A stretch of 63,676 nt of DNA, filler included, from Phoronis australis (GCA_002633005.1; 5 parts of 5 records of this genome joined end to end with filler, not necessarily neighbours in it), one strand, 5' to 3'. Positions 22,320-52,939 are shown, counted from the whole stretch's first letter. Program-made: numbers and translations. Notes: generated from the sequence alone by a model not told the origin.

Positions 22320-23470
22320 AAATACATAAGTTATTAAATAAATAAAATAAATAATATGTGAAATTAAAACAAAATTTAAAATACTATATACAATGTTAAC
22401 AAAGTTGAGCAATTAGCACCATAGGAAAGGAGACTATGTTTGATTCATAAAATTACGGATACTGCATTTACAGGGAAGCTCAGTCCATGCGTTTTCATGC
22501 TGCATAACATTCTTTAAATGTAGGCACAATCTCGCCTCCTCTGATAATGAATTCCACAAATTAATGCCATGTATTGGCTCTGAAAGATAGTAGACCATAC
22601 CGAGTAGTTCTGCATTGACAGATGTTTGTTCTATTGGATGATCTCAAGTTATATGGGGTCCTGCGAATTGTAAGAAGGTCCCACAGAAATGGAGGTGACG
22701 AGCGGTTCACAATTTTAAAAGCCTCTTTCAGAATCAGTGTCTGTCTGCCAAGCTCAAGAGTAGGTAGATTAGCTCTCAGTAATAGTGTTTCATATGAGCT
22801 AGAGAAATCATCAAATACAAAACGCAGAGCCCTACATTGAACTCGTTCAATCTTATGTGTATTGACTTAGCCACAAAAATGTCAGATCAAAGCACAGTAA
22901 AGAAACTGGGATAAAATAAAACTTTGAAATATCATCATCCGTCTACTAAAGTCTAGAATTCTAGCCAAACGCGGTAAAACATTGAGCTGAGCTCCTGCCT
23001 TTCGGCATAAAACTTTAACATGGTTGTCAAAACTCAGGTCCTCATAGTAATTTAACGTCCACCTCACTGGTGATTTTGGCTCCCTCAGCCTCGACAACAG
23101 CCCTGAATACGTTCTTGGAGTCATGAAGAAATATAGAATGGAATTTTGATGGATTTGCCTCCATCATATTTTGCTTGAACCAGGTAATTGCTTTTAAAGA
23201 CTCAGATGTCAGTATCATCCCTTATGCGAGCACTTGCTGAGAGAGTGTTATCATCGGCATAAGTATACAACTGTGCCTCAGTAAATAAGACACTGATATC
23301 ATTCACAAAAATATTGAACAGAACTGGACCCATGATGGACCCCTGTGGCACTCCCTTGACTATGTCTAGCCAATCGCTAGGCATTCCACCGATCCTAACA
23401 CGCTGTTTCCTTCTTGACAGATAGGACCATAAAAAGGCACATGCTTGTTCACTCACACCGTACGCTCTTG
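22320..23470 (-). mobile_element. 5'-truncated CR1/L2-group LINE (3' RT region and AT-rich tail)
   Basis: SYLSRRKQRV..GVPQGSIMGPVLFNIFVND..YADD (23202-23470) and LSFDNHV..LCRKAG.QLNVL.RL (22882-23050); (ATTT)n-like tail near 22320-22355. Confidence 0.85.
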
Positions 23471-23899
23471 ATTCCTTGACCACACTTACTGTAAATGAAG
23501 AAGTGCGAGCAGAGGAATTTTCCATTTTCATCTTTGCTCAGTTGTGACATTCTAGAACTCCTTTCGGTGGAATTCCTGGTTAAAGGTTGTTTTAATTGTT
23601 TTCAAGGTTATGTAGCACCCTAGAAAAAATTTCAGTTTTGGCAAAACGTCGGAACATCATATGCTTTATCCCATATATTTGTAAGTATGGGCATTTAATA
23701 CGCCGTCTACTACGTCGTCAGATAAGTCTTGAAATACGGGTAAGTAGAGCCGCAATCCGTATACAATGGTAGAGGCTGTATTTCATAGTTGTTGGTGTGC
23801 GGTCTCCTGGCGCAGTAAATTGGCGTGTACGACGGCAAATTTGATTGACCTCGTTTATTTGGGTTACGTAAAACATTGGTCCAAGGCAGTTTTCCTTCA

Positions 23900-26800
23900 T
23901 AGTCCAGTCATTCTATGGATGACCCGGAAATAATCGCAACAGAAGGTTTAATTTCTTAAATCGAATCCTTTCACATCCCGTAGCGTGAGAAAAAAGTCTA
24001 CCGGAATCGGAGAAGCGGAAGATGGTTCTTCAAGATGGCGGACAAAATGGCCGTCAGATTTGCAGTTGACTATTATAACTCGAGAGGTTCACCTATATTT
24101 TGTGGGTCAACAAATCCATTGGAAATAGTTTTGCTTGGCTGTGGTGACACCGTCCGCCATTTCCCAAGATGGTCGCCAAAACCACTTTGAGTCGCACAAC
24201 TTTGCACGAACAGATTAGTGTGTCGTCTTGACTTAAACATTGCATCATAGGTTTTCTGGGTCGACTATTGCGTTTGGCTAAAATGATTACTTCAGCCATT
24301 TTCTAAGATGGCCACCAAATTGTTCCTTCGTGTAAGAACTTCAGAATCCAGGAACACGCCGTCTTCACAGATTTCGTATCCTGATTTTCATAACATAACG
24401 TAAAATTGCCGTGAGGACTTGACAGGGACCTCAGGGGCCTCACACTCCACTGATTTATCCACATTATTTTGAAAACGCTTTGTCCAGTCACACATTGTGT
24501 GTCATAAACGAGATAAGCATACCAGCAGCTGACGCAGCAAGTAGAACTACTCTCGTTTATCACATAGGTGTTGACTCACAGTTGAACTGTGGTTTTCTGT
24601 AGACCCCAGACCGTCCCGAGTTGCACCATATACCAACTCCGGACGGTCTCTCACGACGATTAAGCATGTCTATTAAAATTATTTTTGTCTGACTCTGATG
24701 ATTATGACTACCATTTTCAAGATTGTTAAACAAATAAGAACTTTCTTGGGTGAAAAACATCAGGTTCGCGTGGACTGAAGGGTCATTCTCCTGAAAAAAC
24801 ATTTGCTTTATCGAAAATAATTCTCTGCAATTAATTTAGTGATCTACTAACCACACCAATTGACCGTCTGTGTTACCTCCAGATAATTGTAAATTCTAGT
24901 GAATACAGCAACAGTTGAGACAGGATGCCCACTACTAAGTCTGATTGGATTTCTGTGTTTGACGAGTGCCTTTGCTGTTTGCCAAAAATTGTGAACTTCC
25001 TTCTTTGACTTGATCACCATGTTACCATTGAAGTGAATTTCAATTCCAACCACACCACCCACTCTTCGAACTGGTGGACTTGTCATTGCAATAACCTTGT
25101 CTTTCTTTCTGAATGTGAAGTCTTTCCCACTCGACCCCTCCATAGGCAAGATAATCGCCTTCCCCGCTTCTGTGACATTTTGGCATTGACACGTGTGCCT
25201 GCTGTCACACCAGTAGCGATGTTCTGTGGTGTTTCCCTTTCAAGTGGGTTTCTGTTTTGTAGGAATTCAACAAGGCTGAGCATGTCTTTGTCATCCCGCA
25301 ACTGTGTTGAATGTCTTTCTTTATGCTGCTCAGTTGTATCTCAGTTAAAAATCGTCACACTCTGCGTGGCACCATTTATACTTTAGCATGCTGGCAAGGA
25401 AAGCAGCCACTGTGCACGCTCCGTATGTCCCATTCCGCAACCGCTTGTTAAACCTCCTGTGGATTTAATGGTTTTCATGAGCGTTTGTTCAATTACGAGG
25501 TCAAATGACAAGCCTTCCTAGAATCTGTCACTTCGTGTTATGGCATGGTGGCCGTTAATAAAGGGGCTGTAGACATCTGGGTGGGTGTCTTTGAGTTGCT
25601 GCTTCTGCTGCAAGTATATTATGCAGATTTTGCATATGAGTTGTGACCAGCAACTGCAAAGTAAGGCAGCATTTAAGAAACTGCTTTTAGGAGAAGTTCC
25701 TAATCTGACGTTATTTTTGCTTTTAGACCGATGGTTCGACTTTGGAAGGACAAGTCTGATTTATGTGCTTTGTTTTTTATGTCGGCCTATTCGTACAAGA
25801 CACTCCGACAAGCATACATCGCCGCTCGTAGACGTCACGCACGGACTATCATCATACAGCTTCAGACCAGCTTTCAAATCATCGAGTATATCAGTGGCCA
25901 TTGATTCTTCTGACGAACCATTCTGTGTCACTGCAAATTTTGGAGACCTATACTCTGATACAGTCGTGTTTGAATATATTAGTAGCAGTTTGTTGGAAGC
26001 CAGAAGTGAACTCTCGTGAGGGTATTTCACTGTAATCCAAGGTTCAGAATCCGAAGACACTGCCTGCTCATTGCATGTCCCAGTGTATACATCTCTAGTT
26101 ATGTGATCAGTTGGGATGTCTGAAGAATCTGTCTCCATATATCCTGACTAGCCAAAGTTTGTGTACAAGCATTGAATTGCTCTACGGAATCTGTGTGTTC
26201 TGTGTTGGTGACATTCGGGACTCCTGGAATTTCTGAAGAACCGAAACTTCTTTTTTCAAATCCTGAAGTCATTGGTTCTGGATTGGCGTTACTTGATTTG
26301 TCAATATTTGGAAGTTAGATGTTGAATGCACTGGCTGTTCTGATAGCATTCAGTGCTGAGTCTAGCAACATAGGCCCCCTCACTGCTCTGTCCACACTTT
26401 TTCAGTTCGACATACGGATCACGCTTTTTGGTGCATACACTGTGGCAAGAACGTCTTGAAGCCTGGTGCCTGACATTACGTATCCAATACATCCCAGAAA
26501 GCTCATCTCAATATGAAATCCGCCAAGCCTAGCTAAGAATAAGTGACGGCAGATCAGTGTCGTTTGGTTTGCTGACACTAATTTCCTCTAAACTCAGTTA
26601 CCTATGTTCATAAAAAGCATGCATATTAAACCAGTTGTGAGTACTAAGTGTTAAGCATTTAATTATTAACTTTTAGTTACACAAATTTATTTACTTTTCA
26701 TCAACTTCAGGTGAAATCAGCAGCCAAATTCTCCACTCATGTCAGACGAAATCTTTGCATGGGAACAACTAATAAATATCTCCTATAACAGAGAGCAAAG

Positions 26801-28088
26801 CCACTTCTTGTCCAATGTAATTCAGGATTGGTGCAATGGGAATGAGCCAACAATTCCACCAGAATTACATATGTTGAAACAAATATTATTTTTGATGCCT
26901 CAAATGAATATATTTTAGAGAAAAATATTTCAGTGTGTGAAATTTATTATGAAAATTAACTAAAGTCTTTTCTGAAAAAAAACAACCTTTATGTTAAATA
27001 ATCTAAAATGCGATTAAAATTACACATTTAGTGCCTAAAAGTTAAAAATAATTTTTATAAACAATCAACTCATTAAGCCTGACTGTAGATTGTAAGAGGT
27101 TTTTGTGTAAATGCTTATCTGGTTACAAACAAAGTTTGCAGAATGCACATGCTGTAAGTTGGGGTTTTGAGAGTTGGCGGCCATTTTGTCAGTCATCTTG
27201 ATTTTTTTCTCTCTAACCAGTGATCAACTGTACAGGCCAGATATTTTCAATTGTCCAACTTACAAAAGCATAGAATTTTTGCCATTTTCAGGGCAAAGTA
27301 TAAAAAGAAATTTTGAAGCATGTACCAAATTGCCGTTTTGGCCACCATATTGGTTTTATTTTACGGAAAATTGGCATCTTTTGATTAGTATCCCCGTTAT
27401 GAAAAGTATATAATGAATGGCAAGCTTTATTGCTTTATTTCCAGCTGTTACATAGGAGTAACATGCCAGAAAGCAGTAAACACCGTTTTGTCGGCCATTT
27501 TTTCTGCCATCTTGAAAAACCGACTTCTGCCACACCAATTTGGGTAGACTTTTTTCTGGAACCAAGGGATGTTTGAAGATGCCTTTTATGCAAAAAACCT
27601 TCTGTTACAATTTTTTCAAGGTTGGGCCCTCAGTGCCCGGTTGCATGAAACAGTCCCAAATATGGACTCAACTAAGTTCCCTAAATCTACTGCGTATTTT
27701 TGGACTTGTGGAAACATCGATAGACCTTGTATCGTTTTAGTTTCATTACTAAGTCAACTCTTTACTTTGATACAAATCGAGAATGAACTCTACCTTAAAT
27801 TGTCAATATTGTCGAAAATAAGGAGGAATTTTTTCATGCAATACCCGCTATTTAAGGACTAAGTCCCTATTTATTTTCAATGAACTCTGGGATCAGGTTT
27901 TAATCATATTATTAGAAAATGTCATTAATCAAAGAAGAGCTCTTAATAAAGATGAAATGGTAGAAAAATATTACATCTGTCAGTCCATAAAGACAAAAAT
28001 ACCCAAAAAGACTTAGGGACCTAAGTTGAGTCCCTATTTGGGACCGTTTCATGCAACCGGACACTGGAGCCCTAGAATGACTAGACTA
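23900..28088 (-). mobile_element. Academ-like DNA transposon, internally deleted, with transposase remnants
   Basis: Termini TAGTCCAGTCATTCTA...TAGAATGACTAGACTA, imperfect ~150-bp TIRs (shared AACAGAAGG, GAAAAAAGTCTACC, TTCAAGATGGC) and 3-bp TSD TCA (23897-23899 / 28089-28091). Minus-strand remnants DTHPDVY..HHAITRSDRF*EGLSFDLVIEQTLMKTIKSTGGLT, FLQNRNP..NIATGVTA and DFTFRKKDKV (25080-25680). Confidence 0.8.
27631..28066. mobile_element. MITE (Harbinger-like TIR) inserted in the right TIR of the Academ element
   Basis: ~58-bp TIRs CAGTGCCCGGTTGCATGAAACAGTCCCAAATA... / ...TATTTGGGACCGTTTCATGCAACCGGACACTG; TSD unresolved. Confidence 0.8.
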
Positions 28089-28729: not shown

Positions 28730-28797
28730 GTGCACCAGTGAGACCAGAACCCACGACCTTGATTAAAGGAAGCGGACACTTGTCCGACTAGGCTGCA
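28730..28797 (-). other. tRNA-derived (SINE-head-like) sequence
   Basis: Minus strand GCAGCCTAGTCGG...AAGGTCGTGGGTTCTGGTCTCACTGGTGCAC has A-box-like and B-box-like motifs. Confidence 0.45.
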
Positions 28798-29292
28798 TCA
28801 TGTTCTCCAGTAGCAAATTGGTATACAGTCAAAAATCAGCTTATACTGTTGTTATTATAAGTTTCTGCTTTCAGATATACCTTTGTTGGGTTGAATTGAA
28901 TAGTTTTGTAGATATTTTGTTAAATGTACAGTAAGGACCCTCATAACATCAAGGTTCTACATTTTTTGTCATTATCCTGAAATCAAACGATTCGCCCGTT
29001 AGCGGATTTGTCATTTTGGAATGAGTTTTTTGAAGTTTGCGAGTGTATGCTATGTAGTGCTTAGTTATTTTTTCATTTGGGTAGTTAACCGTCATGATGA
29101 GGGAATAGACATTTACGTTTAAAAACTTGTCTTGATGGTTGACACCAATGGCGTGCCAGGACTACACTTGAAATTTGGCTGTGACAGTTCTTGTTTAGAA
29201 GAGTTATGAATAAGTCCTTAATGTTCGATAAATGGAAACGGCCAGAATTTATTAGAACACAGATCATTTACAAAACATTTCAGAATTCCAAA

Positions 29293-32200
29293 ATGGATGA
29301 CCAAGCTGTGAAGAACACTGCCAATGACGATGGCGGCTTGTCGTGTAAGTACCTAAAGATGACGAATGATTATAGGTGAACGTACTCAGATCTTCGATTA
29401 TTCAGGTATTTCCTGATTCAAGTCTTGCTGAAACAAAACCTCACGTATTCCAAGTTCCAAGTAAACATCGGCCTTAATATTCAATCTTCACAGAACATTG
29501 CTACTGATAAATGTAGCTTGAAAATGTGTAATCAGAGTTCGACACTTATTGTTCTGTTTTAGATTGAACTACCTCTTCTGGCATATCTAAACGTCAAAAA
29601 TCAATTGTGTGGACTGTATTTTTATGAGGCGTAAGCGCATTGGTTGTGTGTGTGTGTGTGCGTGTGTGTGTGTGTGTGTGCGNATAGGGTTTAACATTTT
29701 TAGCAGAATTTAAATGTAAGGTGAATCAATTTGTCAATGGTGTTCACATTATTTCAACATTTTGCCAAAACAGTTCCGGATGGCGAATCTGCGCAACTGG
29801 ACGAAGAAGAAGCCAAATTATCCTCAACACTAAGAAAATTGACGAAGGAAGACAGAAAAACTAAGACTGGCGGGGAGATACTTAAAAAAATGGGCGAAAT
29901 TCATATGAAACGCGGTTTATTGAAAAACTGTAATCGCCATTTTGTGACTGCATCAGCATTATTTAACGCGGCTTTGATGAGAATTGACGAAGTAAGAATG
30001 ATTAAAGAGATTGAAACATTGATAGGAGAAAACGAAAAAGCTTTCTGCGCCATGGTGTCAGCACCAGGTACAGACCTACCGATGTACTTCAAGTTTGAAA
30101 CCAAGGCAAAACTGGAGAAGACAAGGAGTGAAGTTTTCCCTAAAGCTGAAAAGGCATTAAACGATTTTGCCCACAAACTTAATTTGGAAGCGCCGGAAAG
30201 TGATCGAATACAATTAGAAAAGACATTTTTGGAAGAAACAGAGGCCATCTTTAAGGACATTTGTTCAAGCATACATCTGTTTGACCATTATCTCCTGTCG
30301 AAGTGCCAGGACATCTTGGGACTTCCTCCACAAGAATACACAGCCATAGCCATGGGTTCTTTAGCGAGAGGTGAGGTAACACCGTATTCAGATTTAGAAT
30401 GGGCTATTTTGGTAAAAGATGATACCCAAGATTTGGAGTACTTCAGAAATATGGCCCGACTTATGCACTTGTTTGTTTTGAACATTGGGGAAACAGATTT
30501 GAAGACCATGTGCATCAAGACACTTAATGACTGTGATTCGCGAGGAGAGAATTGGTTTGTAGACGATGTTGTTGCCCGGGGATTTGGCTTCGATAGTGCA
30601 GTTCCTTATGCTTGTAAGACACCACTGGGTCGACCCGACAGACCTGGTAAACCAGGCATTGAATTAATCAGAACGCCCAAAAACATGGCTAAGTTATGTG
30701 ATGTTGAGACAGCTCTTAAGGAGGGCTATAACTTTGATCGTGTTCTAACGACTGTAATCAAACTTGATGGCAGTGATTTACTTCTGAGAGAATTCAAGTT
30801 ATCAAGAGCGAGCAATCAAAGTACAAAAGTTGCACGTTTAAAATATTTATCAGAAATTCGAACTCTAGTCCGGGAATTTCTGCCTCAGCTCAGTTTTTAC
30901 TACGATTTAGAAGCGCGGCATGACATCAAAAAAGAAATGTATAGATTACCGACCTTGGTTATCAGCCTTTTGAGACCTTTGTTCGGTTTGGACAACAACA
31001 ACACGTGGGACATGCTGAATGAAATGAAATCCAAAGGAATATTGTCTGAGGAAGGGGCACACAACTTATTGGTAACAGTCTCCATAGTCAGCCTTTTGAG
31101 ACTGGTGATGTATTGTCGTAAATCCAAACAGGAGGAGTTCTTTGTGTTACTAGGAAGCCCAACGCAAACAAGTCAATCGTCCAAAGAAATGTCGGGATAC
31201 AACATAATATCAACTTTAGTAGTCAGATATTATTTTTCAATATACCCATTTGCTGATTATGTGAGAGATTGTCAGTTTGAAGATGCAATTGCAATGAAAA
31301 AAATAGATGGATATTTTTTCAACAAAAACGAATTGCTCGAAGGTTGCATTGAATTCTCTTGCCGCCGTTTAGAAAAAGCCAGAGAAAAATTTTTCGCACA
31401 CATTGAATCAGTCTCATCAAAGAATTTACGTTTCAATCAAAGTGACCCAGAAGACATAGTGCTTTGCTATAACGGCAGCGATAGTCTTTGTGATCACACA
31501 GACGCGTCGGTTAACGCTTGCCTGAAATTGATTGGTGACTCGTACTTGTTTGGCTCTCAGGCTAGCAGAGCTTTACATTACTATGATCGCGCATTGTGCA
31601 TAGCCGAGAAAAGTATGGGGATTTTCACTGAACGGAGTGGAGCATTAGAGCATGAGTCCTGCTTTCCCGAATCACTGCATACACCCGTAAATATATCTGT
31701 GGAAGTTTTGCTTGCACTCCGAGTCGATGCAGATGGCACGATAGATATATCCAAACACTTTCTGGCCAAGTGTGAGGACACACTTGAAACTACGGAAACA
31801 ATGCTCAACAGAATTGACGAATACGACTACCGGTGTGTTCTTTTACAGCACATTGGTGCAGCACATCGGCTTAAGGGGGATTTCAAGGTAGCCTTGGGAT
31901 ACTTTAAAAAGGCCCTACGAGAATGTAGAGAAATTAAGAGTGTCGGTCTTCTACTAAAAAATATTGCTGATATTTATCAGGTCATGGCTAACTACAAATT
32001 ATCGTTACAATACAGTCAACATTCGCATAACATTATGAACATAATACATTACAGTGTTGAACATCCCGACATCGCTTATGCTTTATATCATATAGGGGGC
32101 GTGTATGATGGTATGAATCAATACAATCTTGCCCTACAATATCATGAAGACTCCTTGAACATGATGAAGAGGATATATGGTGATGTGGACCATCCTGACA

Positions 32201-35200
32201 TCGCGCCTATTTTGAATAGTATTGGGAGAGTGTATAGGCGTACACGAAATTATGGACTGGCCTTACAATATCACCAAGAGTCTTTAAGTATGACGAAAAG
32301 ACTATTTGGTGATGCTGACCATCTCCTCATTGCGTACAATTTGATCGCCACTGGCGATGTGTATCAGGATACGCGAAATCACGAGTTTGCCTTGCATCCT
32401 TATCAAGACGCACTGAGTGTGTTAAAGAGGTTGTTTGGCGATGTTGACCATCTCTTAATCGCTGACACATTGACCAACATTGGGAATGCGTCTATACAAA
32501 TGGAAAGGTATGAAATGGCTTGGAAGAACTTTCAGGAATCACTGAGTATGAGAAAGAGACTTTTCGGTGACAAAGATCATGAAAAAATCGCCGTCGGATT
32601 GGTGTCGGTTGGTGTTTGGTATCATCAGATGGAGAACCACGAATTAGCCTTACAGTATTTGCAAGACAGTTTAAGCATGTTCAAAAGACTGTTTGGTGAC
32701 GTTGATCTTCACGACATTGCTCTAATTTTAGTGAACATTGGTCGTGTGCATGGTGCTATGAATAAGTGTGAGGTAGCTGTGCAATATTGTCAGGACTCAC
32801 TGAGTATGATGAAGAAGATACATAATGATGTTGGTCATCCTGACATTGGAGATATTTTGAGTCACATCGCACAAATCTACCGTAGCGTGGGTAAGCCAGA
32901 GTTGAGCTTAGAATATAGTAAAAGGTCCCTAAGAGTAATGAAGACATTTTATGGTGATGGTGACCATCCCGACATTGCTTTGATTTTAAATGGCATAGGA
33001 GATACGCACTGTAATATGAAAAGGTTCGAGTTAGCAGCACAGTACTTTCAAGAAGCACTGAGTATGAGTAGAAGGATTCATGGTGATGTTGATCATCCCG
33101 ATATTGCGCAGAGCTTACATTCCATAGGGGTTGTACATGTCGATATGAAGATGACTGCGTTGGCTGTGCAACACTTACAAGAATCACTGAGCATGAAAAG
33201 AAGAATTTACCGTAATATTGACCATCCAGACGTTGTCATAATTTTGCGTGACATTGGGTTCGCGTATAATAAGTCTGGTCAATACAAATCAGCTTTAGAT
33301 CATGTTCAAGACTCGCTGAATATGATGAGGAGAATGTATGGTGATGTCGACCATCGTGATATTGCGTTAAGTTTGTGCAGGCTTGGCGATATGTATCTTC
33401 ATGTGAACAAGCGCGAGCTTGCCTTACAGAGTTGTAGAGAAGCACTGGCCATGTGGAAGAGAATACATGGTGATACTGACCATCCTGACATTGCTATAGG
33501 GTTACACTGTGTGGGGTCTCTAAATCGCAACATCAGTCAATACCAGTTATCTTTCCAATACCTTCATGACTCCCTGAGTATGATGAAGAGAATATACGGT
33601 AATGGTGATCATTCTGATATTGTGGAAAGTTTCACAGAAATTGGGCATTTGCATCGTGATATGAAAAAATATGAGTTAGCCTTACAATATTACCAAGATT
33701 CACGAAGTATGATGAAAAGAATCTATGGTGATGTTGATCACACTGAAATTGCTTCAAATTTAGGCTGCATGGGGGACGTGTATAGCGACACGTATAAGCA
33801 CAAGTTAGCCTTGCAATATTTTCAAGACTCATTGAGTATGATGAAAAGGATACATGATAGTGGTGACCACTCTGACATTGCACGGACGTTAGAAGGCATT
33901 GGGTATGTTTATTGCAAGATGGATAAGCACAAGTTAGCCTTGCAATGTCTCCAAGACTCTCAAAGTATGAAGAAAAGAATATATGGTGATGTTGATCATC
34001 CCGAAATTGCTTCAAACTTGAGGTATATCGGGAGCGTGTATAGTGACATGAAAAAGCACAAGTTAGCCTTACAATACTTTCAAAACTCATTGAGTATGGT
34101 GAAGAACATATCTGATAGTGGTGACCACTCCGACATTGCACTGAGGTTACAAGACATTGGGAATGTGTATTGCAAGATGAGTGAGCACAAGTTAGCCTTG
34201 CAATGTCTCCAAGACTCTCACAGTATGATGAAAAGAATATATGGTGATATTGATCATCTTGAAATTGCTTCAAATTTACGCTGTATTGGTATCGTGTTTA
34301 GGGACATGAATAAGCACAAGTTTGCTATACAACACTTTCAAGACTCATTGAATATGGTGAAGAGGATATGTGATAATGGTGGCCACTCTGACATTGCATT
34401 GGGTTTAAGGCTCATTGGGAGTGTATATTACGAGATGGATAAGCTCGAATCAGCTTTGCAATATTTTCAGGATTCTCAAAGTATGTGGAAAATGATTTAT
34501 GGTGATGTTGATCATCCTAAAATTGCTTCGAATTTAGGTTGTATTGCGGGCGTGTATAGCAACATGAATAAGCACGAGTCAGCCTTACAATACGCTCAAG
34601 ACTCATTGAATATGAAGAAGAGGATATATGATAACGGTGACCACTCTGACGTTGCACTGAGTTTAGGGATTTGTGGTAGTGTGTATCGTCAAATGCAAAA
34701 TTACGAGTTAGCCTTGCAATATTACCAAGATTCACGAAGTATGATGAAAAGAATGTATGGTGATGTTGATCATCCTAAAATTGCTTCAAATTTGGTCTGT
34801 ATAGGGCGGGTGTATAAAGACATGGACGAGAGCGAGTTAGCCTTACAATACGCTCTAAAATCTAGCAGTATGATGAAAAGGATATATGATGATTGTGACC
34901 ACTCTGACATTGCACTGAGTTTAGGGCTCATTGGGAGTGTGTATTGCAAGATGGATGAGCACAAGTTAGCCTTGAAATATCTCCAAGACTCTCAAAATAT
35001 GATGAAAAGGGTGTATGGTGATGTTGATCATTCTCACGTTGCTGAAATGTTTCGCCAAATTGGATTTGTGTATACAAAATTGGGTAAGCTAGACTCAGCA
35101 TTGGAATGCTGCCAGAAATCGTTAGATATGACGATTAGATTGGAAAACGGGCTTGATCATCCTGATACTGCCACTCTCTTGAAGGAAATTGGGTCCCTCT

Positions 35201-35421
35201 GTTTCGCTATGGGTAAATTAGACATGGCAATGCGCAGTTACTTGGAGGCCTTTGTAATGAGAGAACGACTTGGTTGTAACAACGACAGCTGGGACAATGC
35301 AGTCATGTTGAGTGAAATGAGTGAGGTGTACAAACAGAGAGGTAAATATAAAATGAGTGAAAAATATCTGGAAGATTCAAAGAAAATGTTCAAAAGGTTG
35401 TCTGTCTCTTTGACTGAATAG
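29293..35421 (+). CDS. Nucleotidyltransferase (Pol-beta superfamily, GlnD/GlnE/DUF294-like) fused to a long 43-aa TPR array; exons 29293-29344 and 29774-35421, ~1900 aa
   Basis: 1896-aa open frame 29731-35421. It carries AMGSLARGEVTPYSDLEWAILV (hGS-x10-DhE NTase motif, ~30349-30414), a helical region DIKKEMYR...TWDMLNEMKSKGILSEEGAHNL...LLRL resembling DUF294_C, and tandem HPDIA..L..IG.VY...ALQY.QDSL.M.KRIYGDVD repeats. The ORF-track TTG start is unlikely. ATG 29293 (MDDQAVKNTANDDGGLS+T) is followed by donor GTAAGT at 29345, and acceptor AACAG at 29769-29773 restores the frame (phase 1: T|TT CCG GAT). Confidence 0.9.
32062..35286 (+). repeat. Coding tandem repeat: 25 x 129 bp (43-aa TPR units), followed by a degenerate 26th capping unit
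   Basis: CATCCCGAC (HPD) at 32062 and CATCCTGAT at 35158 lie exactly 24 x 129 bp apart, and every unit is 43 aa in the translation. Confidence 0.95.
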
Positions 35422-35612
35422 AGCCATTAATTGGTAACATGTACAATTTAACAGACTGTGTAAAAACCTTAATGGAGTGTTGAATTTTATGTATTGTGTT
35501 CGACGAGATCTACTGCAAAGCTGCACATGCAAATTTTAGGAATTTGATGCCTTCCATGGGCTCCAAAAATCCCCAGTGAAGTTGTTTTGTGTAAATGTGA
35601 TGAAATTACTAT

Positions 35613-35618
35613 AATAAA
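35613..35618 (+). promoter_or_regulatory. Candidate polyadenylation signal of the NTase-TPR gene
   Basis: AATAAA ~190 nt after the TAG stop at 35421. Confidence 0.4.
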
Positions 35619-37045
35619 CAAACTGAACGTTTCTCTCTCACTTTGAAGTACACAATTGTCATGTTTTATCAGTATTGTAAATCTGGTGTCAGGTTTTGAA
35701 TACTATTATAATCCATTTCAAACTATTACAAACTATCTGTCACTGGAAAATATTGAATGATTATGTCACTAAGGAGTCAATGTAAAAAATTAACCAACTT
35801 ACGCCGTGCTTGAATAATAAAATGACAACTTCAATTATAATCCACTCCATTTTCTGATGTTCAAGTTAATAGTTAGCATAAGCAGCATTTTAACGTATTT
35901 AAAAGTACGTCATAGTTGGCAGTTTAGACATCACGTTGTATTTCACGAGGGTTTCGACAAATACTTCAATTTATCGTTGAATACCGTTACTTTCTCTCCC
36001 TAATTGCTTGTACTGAAATCAATCCCTGGTTCAACTTAAGAATCGTCTAATTGCCATTTCACACACGTCACTACTCCCCGGTGGTCTTATTCTTCGATAG
36101 CCATCCCACGCCAGTAGCCCCTCTCCCTCCCTTACCCGGGGGAGGTCACCTCGAGACATAAACATCCGCTTATCGAACATTGTTGAAAGATGCCCCCTGT
36201 TGAGCGGGAACCGATAAATAATGACGGGACATGTTTTCACGGACATGGGGTCATATTTTCATGGGTTGATGAAATCTATTCACATTAAATTTAGACCCTG
36301 TGAAAATACCAATAAACAACGTTGTACATGTATGTGCAAAATCTTTTTGAAAGCGAAAGTAACGACACGTTCCTTCGCAGCGCTTTCATTTGGTGAACCA
36401 AGGCATATTGATGATGCAGAGAACTGACACTTATCAGGCATGTCAATTCACGTGACATTCCAGGAACTTGAGCAGGGAGCGTCATCTATGGAGAAAAGTA
36501 ATTACGCCACATTTAATTCTGATATATTCCTCACTTAGTGTCTGAAACAAGTTTACAGAGAACCTCCCATTTTTGTGACTATTTGGTTGACTACTGCATC
36601 AAACAGAACCTTTTACTTCGGTAGGGACGGGAACACACAGTCAACATTTACTAGGCTTATATTTCATTGCACATTCCAAGTCGTCCACAGAAAAGTGTGG
36701 AAAACAAACAAAATTCGTGAATACCCCAGACCTAATGCAAGACGAGAGTTGAGAAACCAAACAGCTTGTACTGTCCTAATATTAGTAATACAATTACTCG
36801 TGTGCTTTGAGGATCTCAATTAAATTCCTTTCTGCGCAAATACTAGAATTCATAATTTCGCACAGATTGAACTTAATATAAAATACAAAAAGGTGAATAC
36901 ATAATCGCTGTTTATCGCAGTCTTGCATCGAAATACGTCATATAAAAACTATGTATTTATTAACGGGCACATTCCCTACACAGAACGTTTGAGCAAATTT
37001 GCCAATCACTATAGTTACAATTGAAATACAGAGTGATAAATGCAG

Positions 37046-37906
37046 CTATTGAGATTTGAGAAGAGAATATTTCCGTCTGTCTAGTGTTATAAGTGTGTCG
37101 GGCTGGTTACCAAGCTTGTTGCGCAGGTGTTCAGACTTTCCTTTGAAACACTCGCGGTAAACCTTAAATCCCAAAAAGACTAGTTGAATGACGAGGATAA
37201 TGGTGGCGAGAACGAGAAGCCCCACCGACAGTCCTTCTAATCGAGTGCAGATGTTGACGATAAGTTGAATAAGTCGCGTCGTGTGCAGAACGTGGTGGAC
37301 GAAAACGTGACGGAAGTACTCCCTGAATATAACTTGTTCCAAAAACACCACGACGGGTATGGTTAGGTAATAGAAAAACACGTGACCGTAGAGACCCATG
37401 AAATCGTCGGGGAAGAGATATTTCCAGCGCTGATCCATGACGATCGTGATGCTGCAGAGAAGAATGTGATGATCCCAACCAGCGTACACTGAAAGCCCGT
37501 TGGTGACAAGCCACTTGATCAAACAGAGATCCCATTCGTGAAGTTCCCTCCGCAGCAGGGCATGATTGTCGTGCAGTCTCTTAAGGACAGATACGAGACA
37601 TACAACAGCGCAGATGACGCGAGTGAGAGACAGAAACATGGACCATTCAAAATCACGCGAGTGGACCAGTAATCTCCACCAGGTGCCGCTGATGATGAAG
37701 CTTGAGCCGTACATAAAATAAAAGTTCTCGCTGAACAACTCCGGATAACAGTAGACATAGTTCATCGTTCCGTTCACTCGGAATATACTGCTAGCTATAT
37801 AGACGATCACTGCAAACTGCCATGCCATGACCAAAACGCCAACCAGTTGTTCAAAGTGAAATGTTCCATATTTCAAAGGAACTGTAAAAGGGTCGATGAG
37901 AGCCAT
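37046..37906 (-). CDS. Multi-pass membrane protein, 286 aa; divergent member of the uncharacterised TspO/tryptophan-rich-sensory-like family of invertebrates and fish
   Basis: Uninterrupted ORF with several hydrophobic segments. AWQFAVIVY, YPELFSENFY, DLCLIKWLVTNGLSVYAGW and FLEQVIFREYFRH recall that family's consensus (AWQ..W..Y / DLW.IR.LVQNG...YATW / LEN...D.Y.RY). The 5' end may belong to an upstream exon. Confidence 0.65.
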   Translation of the reverse strand: MALIDPFTVPLKYGTFHFEQLVGVLVMAWQFAVIVYIASSIFRVNGTMNYVYCYPELFSENFYFMYGSSFIISGTWWRLLVHSRDFEWSMFLSLTRVICAVVCLVSVLKRLHDNHALLRRELHEWDLCLIKWLVTNGLSVYAGWDHHILLCSITIVMDQRWKYLFPDDFMGLYGHVFFYYLTIPVVVFLEQVIFREYFRHVFVHHVLHTTRLIQLIVNICTRLEGLSVGLLVLATIILVIQLVFLGFKVYRECFKGKSEHLRNKLGNQPDTLITLDRRKYSLLKSQ

Positions 37907-40900
37907 TATCTTCGCGCGCTGGTCGACATCGTAAGTAAAATAGAGGTAGATCCTATCGGATCTGCTTCAATAATGCTGTACCCTAATCCGTCATTACTAT
38001 TACTGTGTGACGAACCTGCTGTTTGGTTTACGACGAAAGCATTACAGGCCACGCTACGAAATTAATGCGGTCCACGCATCGTCTGTGACTACAGTTGGTA
38101 ACGGAAATAGAATCCAGTCACGGTAAGGAATATTACGACACCACTTTATGAGAGTAAATGGCCTAATTCAATTTTTGTTTTAGCCAGGTTCAGGCGAAAT
38201 GCAGCTCTAACCAACCAGGACGCATGGTTCAGGTAAAAATTGCAAGATTACTCAAAAGTGGTATGCAAATGGTCAATTAGATATAGATAAAAAGAAAAGT
38301 TGCCCTTTGTGTAGAAGTTTCTTTGTCAGTTTGGCATATACCGTGATTTCCTGTAGATAAGCCCACCCGATGAAACGCCCATTGGCGTTTATTCGAAAAA
38401 TTTTGACACATAAACGCCCGTGGGCATTCAGTTGGTGTTATAATTTCTAGTGCCAAGTGTTCAGATAGTGAGGGCGTTTATTTGGAAAATTTCCTCTTAA
38501 ATGCCCACTCAGCGTCAACTTTTTGTCACAAATTCAATTTTGCGAAGCATTTATCATTGATAATAACGAACACGATGTTGGCGAACTATGCATTTATTAA
38601 CATAAAACACAGTTTTAAGTGAACAAAAATATGAAAGTCATCAAAAATATGACTTGCCGTTTACATGCTCTCCTTCGTTAATTTTGGTGTTGCAAAACGC
38701 CTAAATTTTTTCATTACTCAAATACACACCCATGAGCTTATCTACGGAAAATGCCAGTATGAAATTTACTCATTATAAAGTGTATTTTGGGCCTTTCGAG
38801 TCGACTTCTATCAAAAAAGTAATAAATAGTCTAAACCAGAAGTATAAAACTTAGACAGTCGCACCTGCAGTGTGCTTGATCTGTACCTACTGGTTATATT
38901 ACTTTGGTTATTACTGCAAATACAATGCAAAATAATAATAGATAAGCCCAGAAAGCACTGGAAACCGTTATATAAAGGCGCAACTTTTTCTGGCAAATCA
39001 GCGCCCAAGTCAAACGGTAAATGGTTACGTACCGAGGATGAGGTTATCAGAACGAGGCGAGAGAACTTGCCATGAAATGTTGAAGCTGTTCAGTCAAACG
39101 ACGACAACCTTAACAGCATGCTGCAATTCACGGTACGCGAGGGCAAAACTGTCGTACATCCTGTCGATGTAAGTTGGGTAGGGGGCTATCTAATGCTGTG
39201 AAACTAACCTGAAGACCACCACGTGATCGCCTTGCATGTCAACTCAGCCGAGTAGCAGACGAATAACGAGCCAATGAGCACTAGTAGACCTTTGTTGTGG
39301 ACAGGCTTCCAAGAAAATCCCTAAAAAGTTTGAAGAATGTCATTCTCAGTGAATCGCAATACAAAAAACTCTCCATGTACGAGTATATCGACATTATTCT
39401 CCATTCAGCTAACTGGCTGGCTAGCTTTTATCCTTTTTGCGATAACGTTGGTTGCAATAATTCGCCTGCTGATTACCCTAACGACCACAATGACTCGGTA
39501 ACTGCACCAAACCCGCCGTGACAAGCAACTAAATGGCGTGGTCTGAAGGAACAACATTCTACTGGTTGAGTCTTCTTCAGCAGAGAAATCATTTACTATC
39601 CGAGAAAGGTTCATGACATTGAGTTTAGAAGTCACAGGTGGCCTGAATAAAAAGGTTGCTTTCACAGGATATTTAGAATATTGCCGGGTTATTCTCTGAA
39701 AGACTCGTAATCAGGAGGTGCGTCTCTTTCATTATCGGGAAAAGTTTCGACAGGGAAAATAATCTTACTCCCTCATAGTTGTTAACACGGTCCTTGTCTT
39801 TGGAATTCCAAGCTGGTATAACCTCTAATGGGGCTATTCGGAAAATCTACAATAACTAGAGGGCGTGCGTGTACTAGTGGTGATAGATAAACAGCCTCGA
39901 TTTCGCGAGCCCTTTTTAAAAATACATGGTGAAATGGCTTGCAGCCGTGCCAACTGAATCTGAGATTGCGTAAAAAGAGTGCTTCTATATGAGAGGAAGT
40001 AAGCACGACCACATACAAAGGTAAGGTTTGTGATTATTTTAACGATTATTCCATGATTATTCTACCGATGCCTGTTAACTGAGGCACTCGCCGTGTCGAC
40101 TTCGCGGCAGTCAGTCGCCAGCCAGAGTCTGGTTAATCTTTGTATGTTGTGATATGTGATACGATACTTAACGTAGCAATCGGGATCTCTTCGTACATCA
40201 AAGCATTATTATTGTTTGGAATGATTTCTCAAAGTTTATCAGTGACAGTTACATCAATCAATGCTGAATGTTTATACTGTCAACTCGATACAGGTTAATG
40301 AGTTAAAATTACAATCCAATCCCAATGGCAAAGGGTACGTGAGTGATAACTATCCATTGCATTAGACTATTTGTTTACTCCCTATCATATGTCTTCTGGA
40401 AATCTATTACACGTTGAAATGGAAATCTATCACGTCAGTTTTCACGTAACCTTTGGTTTTTAGGTTTGAAGGCTTGTACCGTGCAGAGGAGATATGCATC
40501 GCTTCTGCACCGTCCTTGAATGGACAAAAATTGGTTTTCTGCATTTGACTGCAGCTAACCAACAAGATCTTCCCTACTTTCAATATTGGAGACAACGAAC
40601 AAAGCCTTTGAAAAGGAACAGCTTATTTTTAAAGTCATTTTGTTAAATTACTTATTCAGGTCCCGAGGGGGGATTGGCATGGGGGGGTTGTAATCTTTGG
40701 TACAACTGAAGGTGTGGAAATAACAGGTAATACATGTTTGGGGAAAAGAGCATGGTGAGGTAATTCTTAACCTTCACGAAGTCCCTTCAAGTTGATTTCA
40801 TGAAACTGTTTTGCTACTTGTATCAATTGTAAAACCACGAAAATATATTACATTTTCCGAATTCACAGTGACTGAATAGTCTTAACTCATGCCTTGAAAT

Positions 40901-49162: not shown

Positions 49163-50071
49163 CTAATAGCTTAGTTTATTTAAGTCATGTTGAAGCTGCA
49201 AAGAACATTCAGGGCTGCTCCCTGCGAAGGGGTGAAAAAGCGCCGTGTCATCTGCATAAAGGTATGTGCTACATGACAGGTTATCAGGAAGGTCATTAAT
49301 ATAAACCAAGAAGAGAAGAGGACCCAATACGCAACCCTGCGGTACACCTGCGTTTACAAATCCAGGAGGGGATAAAATTGAAAGTACGCCGTCGACACGA
49401 ACACTGTATGTTCTTTCGGAGAGATATGAGGTGATCATGTTTAAAAGATTACCAGTAATGCCATAGGATCCTAGTTTGTGAAGTAGAAGGTCGTGAGGGA
49501 CACAGTCAAAAGCAGAAGCTATATCTAGAAAAATGGACCTGACACTCTCGCCCTTCTCAAAATGTAAATGAATCTCATGTACTATTTCAACAAGTTGTGT
49601 CACGGTGCTGTTCCCACGCAAAAAAACAAATTGACGATGATAGATCAAGTTGTTTTGTTTGAGAAATGTAAGAATACTTTGAGCAATGATCTTCTCGAAG
49701 ATTTTGGACAGGGTGTTAAGTAAAGTTATTGGGCTGTAATTTGAAATTTCAGTTTTGGAGCCTTTTTTGTGTATAGGGACCATAATTCCATGTTTCCAAG
49801 AAGACGGATAAATGCCTAGCTGAAGAAGTTTGTTAAACAGATTGGTCAGGGGCATGGTAATTTCGTTGGAAATCATTTTGATCATCTTGCTGGTTATTAA
49901 AGCTGTGCCATCATTCTTATTGGGGTCAATTTCATTGAGATACTTCCGGACATCAGTTTGATTAGCCGGGATGTCAGACAGTTGATTGAGACATCGTTCA
50001 CGTAGAAAGGGAAAGTTACTTACTTCAGTTGGTGTAATGTGGCTTTTGTTCGTGAAAAATTTGAGAAACAA
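49163..50071 (-). pseudogene. LINE ORF2 reverse transcriptase fragment
   Basis: RT motifs including PQG and YADD; ends at a stop near a repeat and single-N junction. Confidence 0.92.
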
Positions 50072-50290
50072 ATCACACTTGTCACTGCTACTTGAGGCTA
50101 GGTTACCATTATAGTTGATGACAGGATATGAGGATTGCTGTTGACTGCCGCGTATTTTATTTATTCCAGTATTCTTTGGAATTCTTGCTTGCGCTGTTAA
50201 TTTGTTGAAAAAGCTTGTGTCAGTGATCAGCTTTGGCTTGATTTACTAAAGTTTCAACCAGACATGTCTGCTCCTAGTATCTGTTGTAGA

Positions 50291-51793
50291 TTATAGTGTT
50301 GTTAGATCTTCTGAAAGAGCTGTAAAGTCTGTTTTTGTACGGATTGCCCGTTTAACATTATTGTTGAACCACGGTTGGCTGTTGTGTTTAATTATCTTTT
50401 CAGTTGATGGGATGTTGTTTTTTAAGATTTCATAGAGAGTACTAGTGAAGAGTGAAACAGTGTCATCAATGTCGCCAGTGTTCAATATGGAATCCCAGTC
50501 AGTGTTTGTGATATCCTGACGCAGTTTATCGGTGTCGACCTGATCATATTTCCAATTGGTTCGAGTGGTGTGTTGTTCTTTAACCGTTTTTTTAAGTGTT
50601 AGAGTGGTTTCGATTGTGTGGTGATCAGAATTGCCAACAGGAGGTAGTACAGAATATGAGTCAATGATACTCAAATTGTTTGTTATAGAGAGGTCAATAC
50701 ATGAATGAGAAACGTCGGTGATACGGGTTGGCTCATTAATTAGTTGTATGCAGTCATTAGACAATAAGATATCAAACAATTGTAGTCCGGCCGTATTGTC
50801 ATGATCATCATTGTACCATGTAGAGTTTCGGGCATTGAAATCACCATTTATGATTATACTAACGCTATTGCGGTTAAGTTCCGCTAACTGATCGGCTAGG
50901 GCTTTGAAGTAGAGTTTGCTTTCAGTTGGAGATTGAACAGGTGAGAGATAAAACAACCCATAGTAAATTTTACTGTGATCGAAATAAATTTCGATCCAGC
51001 GGTTGCATAACTGAGGACAAGTTAAGCTAGGACATGATTTAAATGAGAGTGTGTTTTTAGTGAATAAGATGATGCCACGGCCACTGTTACTGTGATGGGC
51101 TACACTGTAACCAGGAATGATTAGTTCATTATCAAGGTCGTCTTTGGTAACATTACAAGTTTCACAAAGAGCGACAATCATATATTCGTAAGACAGAACA
51201 AAGTTTTTTAGAAGTTGAAATCTGGAGAAATTGTTGGATTTAATGCTGTTACTATTTGAAAATAAGATTTTAAAGGTAGTATTGTCTTCAGGCCCAGGAT
51301 TTTCTTCAACATCGCCAGCTAAAAGGAGGCACATGCCAACGACGATTCCGTAATCCATACAGGTGTTATGTAAACAATAGTAAGACACATCAGTAAGCTG
51401 AACCCGCATAGCGTGATATCTCATTCGATGCCGGTGAGAGGAATTGAACTGTGACAATGAGGGGGAAAACATGGTAAGACCAGAGAAACTCACACTACTC
51501 GAGGCACTCAAAGGATAGCCGTATGTAACAATTAATACACCAATGCTTGTTGAAAGTTCAAGGGTTGTTAAATGAATAAGGTAGTCTGGACAATTAGGGG
51601 AGTCATTTTTAAAAAACAAAATTATATCATAGGCTCGCTTACAGGTACATAAATAGCAACTTAGTTGAAAAGCACAACATATAAAATCAATCTTGGGAAA
51701 CCAGTTAGTTCTGTTGCAAGTGAATACAAAACACATAGATAATGATTGACCTAAAGATACAATGTCATGTATGTACAGAGGAAATATGACCAA
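50291..51793 (-). pseudogene. LINE ORF2 5' part: 2A-like peptide plus APE endonuclease
   Basis: LLLAGDVEENPGP immediately followed by the APE domain; the frame breaks before the RT. Confidence 0.9.
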
Positions 51794-52939
51794 ATAGTAA
51801 CGGACAGAAGAAGGTGAAAAATAAGAGTTTGAACACTCAAATTCGCTGAAGAAAACAAAAAAAGATGTATTGAAGTTCTCTCACTATGGATAACTTAGCT
51901 GTAACACGTTTTAGAATTGATAAAAGGCTATGAGTTCTTACCACTATAGGCCACCTAGTAATGACTGATCAGCTCATGTGTTCGGTGGTGTCTTCTGAAT
52001 TGAAGTAAACTTTCTCACAGATTGAAACACCAGTTTTCACAGGGATTATTTCAACTTGAAACTCATTATAAACTAAATCATGGTGACAGACAGTGCTCAG
52101 CGTGATTTTTTCACGGGCAAACTAAAACAGTAATAACCAATTAATGATATGGGGAATCATTCGGAAACCCACAACAAAAATCACATGTAGTTGTAGATTC
52201 TGCACCTGACTGACAGAGAACAGAACAAGTGCCTAGAAATTAAAATCAATATTATAGTGATTGAGAGGTGTCAATAACATGACCGAACAGAATTGCCACA
52301 CAAAATCAGTGACATGTAAATTTATCCTGACAGACAATTCGATATGGAGTTGTCCACAAAATCAACGTTCTGAGAAACACAGCAGTCAGAAAAAAAATTA
52401 TATCAGGGACAGCCACTAAGGCCTGAGCTCACATATCAGAATCATTGTCTTATGTGAATATCATGCAATGTACAATTCCGTCACGCATTCAATTAAAATG
52501 TGGGAAACATGTTTTAACAACAACCAAAAATACCACATTAATACATACTGTAGGCAGTTGCAAAGACACTGTATTACATTTTTGGTAAGGGTGCAACTGG
52601 GAAACAGTAAGAGGCAATAAGCAACAAAACCCATGCTCCAAACATGAATGATTTAGATGCATATTAAGGATTCGATGCATAACCATTGCCTGTGGTCAGT
52701 ATAAGGTGTTGTGATCGCTACGGACCTGTATAGAGTGCGCCACTACTGATAGAGAGGTAACTTGAGCGTGATCTGGTATTACATAAGGGAGAAAACTGAA
52801 TAAGTATCAGTGGACAGGACAATTACCTGATCCTGTCAAGACATGGGGGTGGGGTGAGTGAACGCAAAAAAGTGAGGGATGTCACCAGTGAGTAATTGGA
52901 TATGAACTACAATAGGACGAGAGAGCAGAATACAATTTA

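Follow-up and report, generated by a model that had tools for sequence, protein, structure and literature searches.

We analysed a window of 63,676 nucleotides from Phoronis australis (GCA_002633005.1; the whole stretch, made of five records joined with filler and not necessarily neighbours in the genome) and found in it a host gene that encodes a predicted nucleotidyltransferase followed by a TPR array. The gene is integrated in the host genome and transcribed. Judged by sequence, it belongs in one family with the NEX2-type proteins of Neochlamydia and other symbiont proteins, and appears to represent an animal branch of a DrrA-like DUF294-TPR family of intracellular bacteria. On balance, we favour the view that the enzyme likely transfers a nucleotide to protein and that animals likely acquired the family in the distant past from bacteria that live within eukaryotic cells.

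A frame scan of the window gave a plus-strand open frame of 1,898 aa, stop to stop, at 29725-35421. A preliminary description of the window placed the whole nucleotidyltransferase and TPR region in one intronless 5.6-kb exon, which agrees with the second exon of our gene model (Table 1). The same description added a 17-codon exon through a GT-AG intron holding a (GT)n tract. The ATG, the donor, the tract (about 29645-29682) and an in-phase acceptor are all present, and the acceptor is the only one in matching phase within 29690-29800; however, the RNA and DNA read alignments contain no splice junction for this intron at an RNA depth of about 2, and the upstream in-frame ATGs at 29206 and 29221 are alternative starts with which exon 1 could exceed 17 codons. 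RNA depth was 0 over 29368-29601, an intron bin, which is weak evidence since one exonic bin had only 0.05. We therefore treat the small first exon and the intron as putative parts of the gene. For the segment preceding the enzyme, matched stretches at E < 1e-3 numbered 44 in amphioxus, 4 in unlabelled proteins, 1 in a eukaryote-like locus and 0 in the labelled bacterial rows. The enzyme domain itself is a little wider than the 30230..31140 quoted for it earlier.

Table 1. Features of the nucleotidyltransferase-TPR gene and its surroundings, numbered from the first nucleotide of the window
Feature	Position	Strand	Basis or remark
RT fragment	23202-23537		frame search
High-copy inverted-repeat element, 77-nt arms	27631..28066	.	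flanks the gene, not part of it
Putative first coding exon	29293..29344	+	17 codons + 1 base from ATG 29293; sense RNA reads in 28900-29367
Putative phase-1 GT-AG intron	29345..29773	+	GT donor 29345, AG ending 29773
Second exon	29774..35421	+	5,648 nt coding: N-terminal helical segment, enzyme, linker, TPR array, stop
N-terminal segment preceding the enzyme	29785..30129	+	common to amphioxus members
DrrA/GlnE-like nucleotidyltransferase module	30130..31278 (approx.)	+	DUF294 core + helical DUF294_C/HEPN-like lobe from about 30823; Pfam, model, fold searches, DrrA profile match
GSLAR...YSDLE	30355-30411	+	motif search
Catalytic signature G-S-x10-D-x-E	30355..30399	+	G76, S77, D88, E90 (P0003 numbering)
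F.D....RGF.FD	30556-30594	+	motif search
G-F-x-F-D strand with third conserved aspartate D155	30580..30594	+	likely counterpart of DrrA Asp150; putative correspondence
CKTPLG	30613-30630	+	motif search
ELI.TP..MA	30661-30690	+	motif search
K-x4-R of the helical lobe (K267, R272)	30928..30948	+	aligned to DrrA
TPR array	31840..35380	+	129-nt (43-residue) period; 22 overlapping reference matches at that spacing
LINE-type retroelement, endonuclease and reverse transcriptase in separate frames	49163..51880	-	host context

The gene lies among repeats of animal type, and its reported setting among animal transposable elements was confirmed by the LINE-type frames, the RT fragment and the inverted-repeat element, whose summed contig depth exceeded 30,000 vs about 60-70 on the gene. 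Frame coverage in the window outside the gene was 0.16, vs 0.62-0.99 around the first eleven bacterial loci of the family. Base composition did not look foreign, with a GC content of 0.40 for the gene vs 0.39 for the window. Elsewhere in the window, we observed inverted arms at 24000-24056 and 27489-27545 (separated by 3.4 kb; a related arm lies at 27175-27201) that are likely a DNA transposon remnant, a minus-strand hydrophobic open frame of 306 residues at 37046-37966 that resembles a membrane protein and has no Pfam match, and a minus-strand frame of 224 residues at 43988-44662 with zinc-finger-like C/H spacing and no Pfam match at 1e-4.

Reads from one DNA run covered the gene contigs evenly, at a depth of 52-80 across 29005-33519, and the contigs extended into the flanks on both sides (28748-29635 and 34758-36500), although no one contig from that run covered the entire gene stretch. 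One of three RNA runs carried the gene: X7, from another sample with the same species label, gave 102 reads between about 28900 and 35600, and all 51 pairs were in the sense direction; X5 and X6 gave almost no reads on the gene. Reads and contigs differed from the window sequence by 5 silent and no replacing variants in the enzyme vs 9 silent and 25 replacing variants downstream (Fisher p 0.0035), and RNA-only variants were 4 and 0 vs 5 and 17 (p 0.008). These counts are small and may mix alleles and paralogues; they suggest that the enzyme region is under constraint.

Pfam assigned the enzyme to DUF294 (PF03445) with 30.3 bits against a gathering cutoff of 21 (E 4.5e-7) and found many TPR matches in the protein. 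Matches to DUF294_C (13.1 bits, cutoff 22.5) and SidM_N (15.8 bits, cutoff 27) were below threshold, and those to the whole-protein GlnD and GlnE family models (17-18 bits) were far below cutoffs of 519-1299; GlnD model matches over the enzyme core were weak (E about 1e-3). Residues 232-383 of the structural model resemble the helical lobe of DrrA and HEPN-like bundles. The protein has no F-box at E ≤ 0.1, no OTU, and no GEF or PI4P-binding domain among its Pfam matches.

All four motifs listed in the preliminary description were found (Table 1). Polymerase beta-like enzymes are described in the available text of PMC8097203 by the motif G-x11-[DE]-x-[DE] and a third acid; here, G76, D88, E90 and D155 supply this set and are conserved. 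G76, S77, D88, E90, D155 and R272 occur in 48 of 48 named animal rows and K267 in 47, and the same signature residues occur in 79-84 of 84 bacterial rows when D is counted for E. Metagenome loci were excluded from these counts because they had been chosen on part of the same motif. In the profile alignment, D88 and E90 align to Asp110 and Asp112 of DrrA, and D155 is most likely the counterpart of Asp150. The position of Asp249 is occupied by threonine (T275) and is acidic in only 1 of the 48 named animal rows, so not all four DrrA acids (D110, D112, D150 and D249), whose catalytic roles are given in the available part of PMC8097203, are present in the window enzyme.

The enzyme is predicted to fold like DrrA and GlnE. 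The AlphaFold model of 30130-31278 had a mean pLDDT of 79 and a pTM of 0.81, and the best match in a fold search of this model was the adenylyltransferase domain of DrrA (Z 24.5, rmsd 3.3, 286 residues aligned). GlnE domains followed at Z 21.7 and 21.1, and the first row for an unrelated protein was at 8.6; Foldseek matched DrrA at E 3.8e-9. A profile built from 36 family members matched the DrrA sequence over both lobes at E 2.7e-16 and gave no sequence match to GlnE structures. The N-terminal AMPylase domain of Legionella DrrA/SidM (PDB 6yx5, 3nku; Pfam SidM_N) is the best match among solved structures in both fold and sequence, and it has the GS...YSD, L-I-x-T-P and K-x4-R motifs in common with the window enzyme. 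The two differ in that structural alignments give only 12-14% identity, DrrA has D-x-D where the window enzyme has D-x-E, and DrrA carries GEF and lipid-binding domains where the window protein carries a TPR array. Resemblance to the AT and AR domains of GlnE extends over about 290 residues, and the N-terminal domain of GlnD is matched weakly by family models; compared with GlnD and GlnE, the window enzyme is a single domain without regulatory or HD domains. FICD and SelO, the known animal AMPylases, carry out the reaction predicted here and have unrelated folds.

A close likeness is to Neochlamydia NEX2, a set of 50 proteins described in the available text of PMC4209131 (Domman et al. 2014) as having an F-box, in some cases an OTU domain, DUF294 and TPRs. 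Like the window protein, NEX2 proteins combine the DUF294 domain and its motifs with a TPR array located after them, and Neochlamydia proteins match at about 30-32% across some 80% of the domain. The F-box found in most members (Neochlamydia protein P0086 has one) is missing from the window protein, and the window protein is a host gene product with a putative intron, unlike NEX2; it is thus a relative of NEX2 and not NEX2 itself. Ordinary bacterial DUF294 proteins are more distant. They are about 620 aa long with DUF294 and a C-terminal DUF294_C, lack the TPR array, match the family profile weakly over both lobes (E about 1e-7 to 1e-13), and in the alignment lack the inserted loop that carries the G-F-x-F-D and KTPLG motifs. 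They are common in Gammaproteobacteria, making up most of the 65 of 400 genomes that matched at E ≤ 1e-6.

We searched for homologues of the window protein and obtained 109 matches: 47 from Branchiostoma, 4 from octocorals, 2 from Owenia, 2 from ascidians, 15 from Chlamydiae, and 39 that were unnamed or generic. Cluster look-ups tied four clusters to Paramuricea and added further proteins from Owenia, amphioxus, Holosporaceae and Jidaibacter. The named bacterial carriers are Neochlamydia, Parachlamydia, Holosporaceae and Jidaibacter, and named Chlamydiae match the window domain at E values down to 3e-33 over the full length of DUF294. The carriers named in the preliminary description, namely environmental Chlamydiae, other amoeba symbionts and expanded amphioxus families, all have the module; bacterial homologues share its motifs, and the named matches include no vertically inherited pan-eukaryotic clade. 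Among named bacteria the best match reaches 34%, across 72% of the domain, compared with 39% for the closest animal member, which is the highest identity to any relative. Because its animal relatives are thus nearer than its bacterial ones, the window gene is not a fresh acquisition, and the transfer appears to be ancient.

A genome scan yielded 11 loci from Holosporaceae, Parachlamydiaceae, Rhabdochlamydiaceae, Gammaproteobacteria and one uncultured bacterium. In genome samples that include the genomes on which they were centred, and in which all counts are lower bounds, strong matches were found in at least 21 of 400 genomes of the chlamydial phylum, at least 7 of 201 in the order of the alphaproteobacterium G001, 1 of 401 in its class (G001 itself, with none in the 400 others), at least 2 of 86 in the order of the gammaproteobacterium G004, and at least 5 of 400 in its class at E < 1e-30. 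Few bacteria overall carry the family. Carriers often have multiple copies, with 14 and 18 matches per genome. Many of the 18 matches in G004 are clustered on contig 1 in frames of 2,000-3,000 residues, and 1 of the 85 other genomes of its order matched.

The family comprises 1,613 clusters (50% identity) at E ≤ 1e-30, mostly unnamed among the 150 matches listed. No amoeba, fungus, plant or other protist occurs among the named matches, and many matches are unnamed. A language-model search returned a 61-member DUF294 cluster that is 75% eukaryotic, with Ciliophora the commonest group (score 0.86); this is a weak lead that protists may hold related domains. No relative was found in the viral contigs searched. 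Of 72,556 plasmid records, the only one to match was Neochlamydia sp. S13 pS13 (NZ_AP017978.1), in 11 places. Its first 50 kb hold the cell-wall genes mur, ftsW and mraY interleaved with DUF294/TPR genes and transposases, and it may be a piece of chromosome; because of the cell-wall genes and its typing as non-mobilizable, we draw no conclusion about mobility from it.

The domain lies in one frame in 67 of 75 eukaryote-like metagenome loci, which are redundant (39 are distinct below 85% identity); the other 8 are at contig ends (2) or broken (6). Absence of introns was considered as proof of transfer and set aside, since the domain is uninterrupted across the family. A horizontal origin had been proposed earlier from a bacterial-looking module in a single exon: the bacterial kinship stands, and the single long exon is weak evidence for the same reason.

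Several variants of the family deserve description. Dozens of eukaryote-like metagenome loci (L089-L155) belong to an expansion that the 65-row tree described below places with the ascidian members (100/100); it includes several broken copies, a pattern that resembles birth and death. Another eukaryote-like lineage (L156, L159-L162 and L165) has long branches and lies outside the main animal group; L161 and L156 have the G-E-T-x-L-K-x-M motif variant of the window protein, and L161 has an apparent upstream exon. Owenia fusiformis P0266 has an OTU domain, two DUF294 stretches and then TPRs, recalling the OTU-bearing NEX2 proteins; an OTU fusion common to animals and bacteria was rejected, as the OTU of P0266 had no match among the bacterial sequences searched. 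P0004, P0251, P0252 and P0143 contain two or three tandem enzyme modules, some without TPR matches. UniRef labels several amphioxus and Owenia members with the name of the GlnD N-terminal domain.

We inferred three trees with the ordinary 620-residue bacterial DUF294 proteins as an outgroup, whose branch is long: a quick tree of 112 rows, a careful tree of 65 rows (LG+C20) and a quick tree of 48 rows. The trees omit 24 entries with incomplete domains and 88 near-duplicates; the 65-row tree also omits all unnamed proteins and further long or redundant rows, and the 48-row tree omits 17 more. In the 65-row tree and its tests, rows labelled animal include 7 metagenome loci called eukaryotic by low coding density only. 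In all three maximum-likelihood trees, animals nest inside bacteria. The 65-row tree has a 38-row clade (97/93) consisting of the window gene, whose branch is long, 20 other animal or ascidian-like rows, and 17 bacterial rows from Chlamydiae (the named ones included), Alphaproteobacteria, Gammaproteobacteria and metagenomes; the order inside this clade is poorly supported. It sits below three further supported nodes, and all side branches are bacterial except one eukaryote-like group (L156, L160 and L161) that falls one node outside the clade. Bacterial members are more divergent and grade toward DrrA-like and ordinary DUF294 proteins. No bacterial sister group to the animals was resolved in the trees.

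Other results bear on the root and on the unity of the eukaryotic rows. AU tests did not reject a tree with all bacteria in one clade and the eukaryotic rows outside it (p 0.234 for 65 rows; p 0.498 for the reduced, quick 48-row tree), nor one with the 24 eukaryotic rows as a single clade (p 0.368). On the careful tree, the eukaryotic rows require three changes, and none of 200 bootstrap trees has a branch that separates them from all other rows. In a FastTree of 219 rows, a weakly supported split (48) set the animal and eukaryote-like rows together on the same side, and a FastTree of 242 rows united the window gene with amphioxus, Owenia, ascidians and one lineage of octocorals in a 43-row group with a support of 97. 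The grouping of one octocoral lineage with rows from Alphaproteobacteria is weak. Taken on sequence, at least one exchange of the family between bacteria and eukaryotes is very likely, unless eukaryotes missing from the sample bridge the gap, and its deeper roots are bacterial. Transfer probably ran from bacteria to animals. Earlier, the domain had been described as a symbiont-type effector domain shared with, or domesticated by, animals, and nesting of animals among endosymbiont sequences had been proposed as the check. Sharing holds and the best trees contain the nesting; domestication is only favoured because the AU tests leave an alternative root.

Opposite or two-way traffic, in which an early eukaryote gained an ordinary bacterial DUF294 protein once and intracellular bacteria later took the domain from their hosts, is unlikely. 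Intracellular bacteria have picked up F-box and ankyrin domains from hosts. The AU tests allow both a root between eukaryotes and bacteria and a single eukaryotic clade, the possible ciliate cluster would be in keeping with such a history, and the available text of PMC4209131 gives NEX2 eukaryote-type F-box and OTU domains; however, every outgroup tree nests animals inside bacteria, the bacterial members are the more divergent and graded ones, and other eukaryotes are missing from the named matches. Several independent transfers from symbionts to eukaryotes, in place of one ancient transfer followed by losses, would be a variant of the explanation that we prefer, and we regard it as possible but somewhat doubtful. 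The three changes, the bootstrap result, the position of L156, L160 and L161, the weak octocoral grouping with Alphaproteobacteria and the patchy spread among animals all point to repeated transfer, whereas one eukaryotic clade is not rejected, the FastTrees unite animal and eukaryote-like rows or recover the 43-row animal group, and the outlying eukaryote-like group is long-branched.

The remaining alternatives concern the activity of the enzyme and the nature of the locus. The enzyme might make a free cyclic nucleotide or oligonucleotide signal on a trigger sensed by the TPRs, in the manner of cGAS or OAS, and modify no protein. Layouts that combine sensor repeats with a polymerase beta-like domain are common in animal immunity, the available text of PMC8195603 includes a cGAS-like domain followed by TPRs, and the fourth DrrA acid is missing here. 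We nevertheless consider a free signal quite improbable, since the fold matches are enzymes that nucleotidylylate proteins, a CD-NTase appeared only at E 0.75 in Foldseek and not among the best 50 rows of the fold search, and the family profile matches DrrA by sequence. Contamination, with DNA of a bacterial symbiont joined into the animal assembly, is largely refuted and has very little probability left. A long uninterrupted frame with a bacterial-type domain, not spanned by any single read contig, is what contamination could produce, but the gene and its unique flank have even depth, contigs extend beyond the gene at either end, another sample yields sense RNA with allele-like differences, the frame coverage of the window is well below that near bacterial loci, and animal relatives are closer than bacterial ones.

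The activity of the window enzyme is likely protein AMPylation. D88, E90 and D155 would hold a nucleoside triphosphate together with two metal ions, and the NMP, either AMP or another nucleotide, would be moved from the NTP onto a hydroxyl of a target protein. As analogues, DrrA modifies Rab1 and GlnE modifies glutamine synthetase (available parts of PMC8097203 and PMC12409994). The TPR array would be the variable part, choosing the target or restraining the enzyme until a trigger binds. Inspection of the protein shows no hydrophobic leader, and its site of action would accordingly be the cytosol. A defence-like role may be proposed because the family combines lineage-specific expansions, broken copies, patchy expression, and an enzyme that is conserved next to repeats that vary. 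The date of acquisition would be early enough for the family to have spread to octocorals, annelids and chordates, unless several transfers took place.

In our literature search, which covered mainly openly available papers, we found no paper on the animal family; a prior mention is possible. In its available part, the NEX2 account (PMC4209131) mentions no animal members and reports no activity for the domain. DUF294_C has been grouped with GlnD/GlnE and DrrA, in a group listed as bacterial (PMC3710099, available text). Animal members are likewise unmentioned in the available text of PMC13350694, PMC13390645, PMC3482391, PMC8195603, PMC5698495 and PMC2794190. The amphioxus "TPRP-like" transferred gene of PMC13350694 is a weak candidate for membership of the family: the main text lists other donors and makes no mention of a nucleotidyltransferase. 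As far as their available text goes, a 2021 review gives FIC-domain enzymes (FICD) and SelO as the only metazoan AMPylase classes identified (PMC8097203), and a 2025 review names the same two, FIC and SelO, as eukaryotic AMPylases (PMC12409994).

The significance of the gene is tempered by the automatic annotation of the domain already in databases, by a function that is predicted only, and by a direction of transfer that is favoured only. Our tentative proposal, which we hold less firmly than the reading given at the outset, is that marine invertebrates have a third class of animal AMPylase, captured, perhaps repeatedly, from effectors of intracellular bacteria and expanded as TPR-sensor enzymes of defence. 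If this is true, a large, catalytically intact family with the DrrA/GlnE fold, a fold treated as bacterial, would constitute that third class, with members from octocorals, annelids, amphioxus and ascidians as well as this host. It would also link an uncharacterised expansion in symbionts, NEX2 and its kin, to the chemistry of DrrA, and it would exemplify the passage of an effector-type domain between symbionts and the animals that host them.
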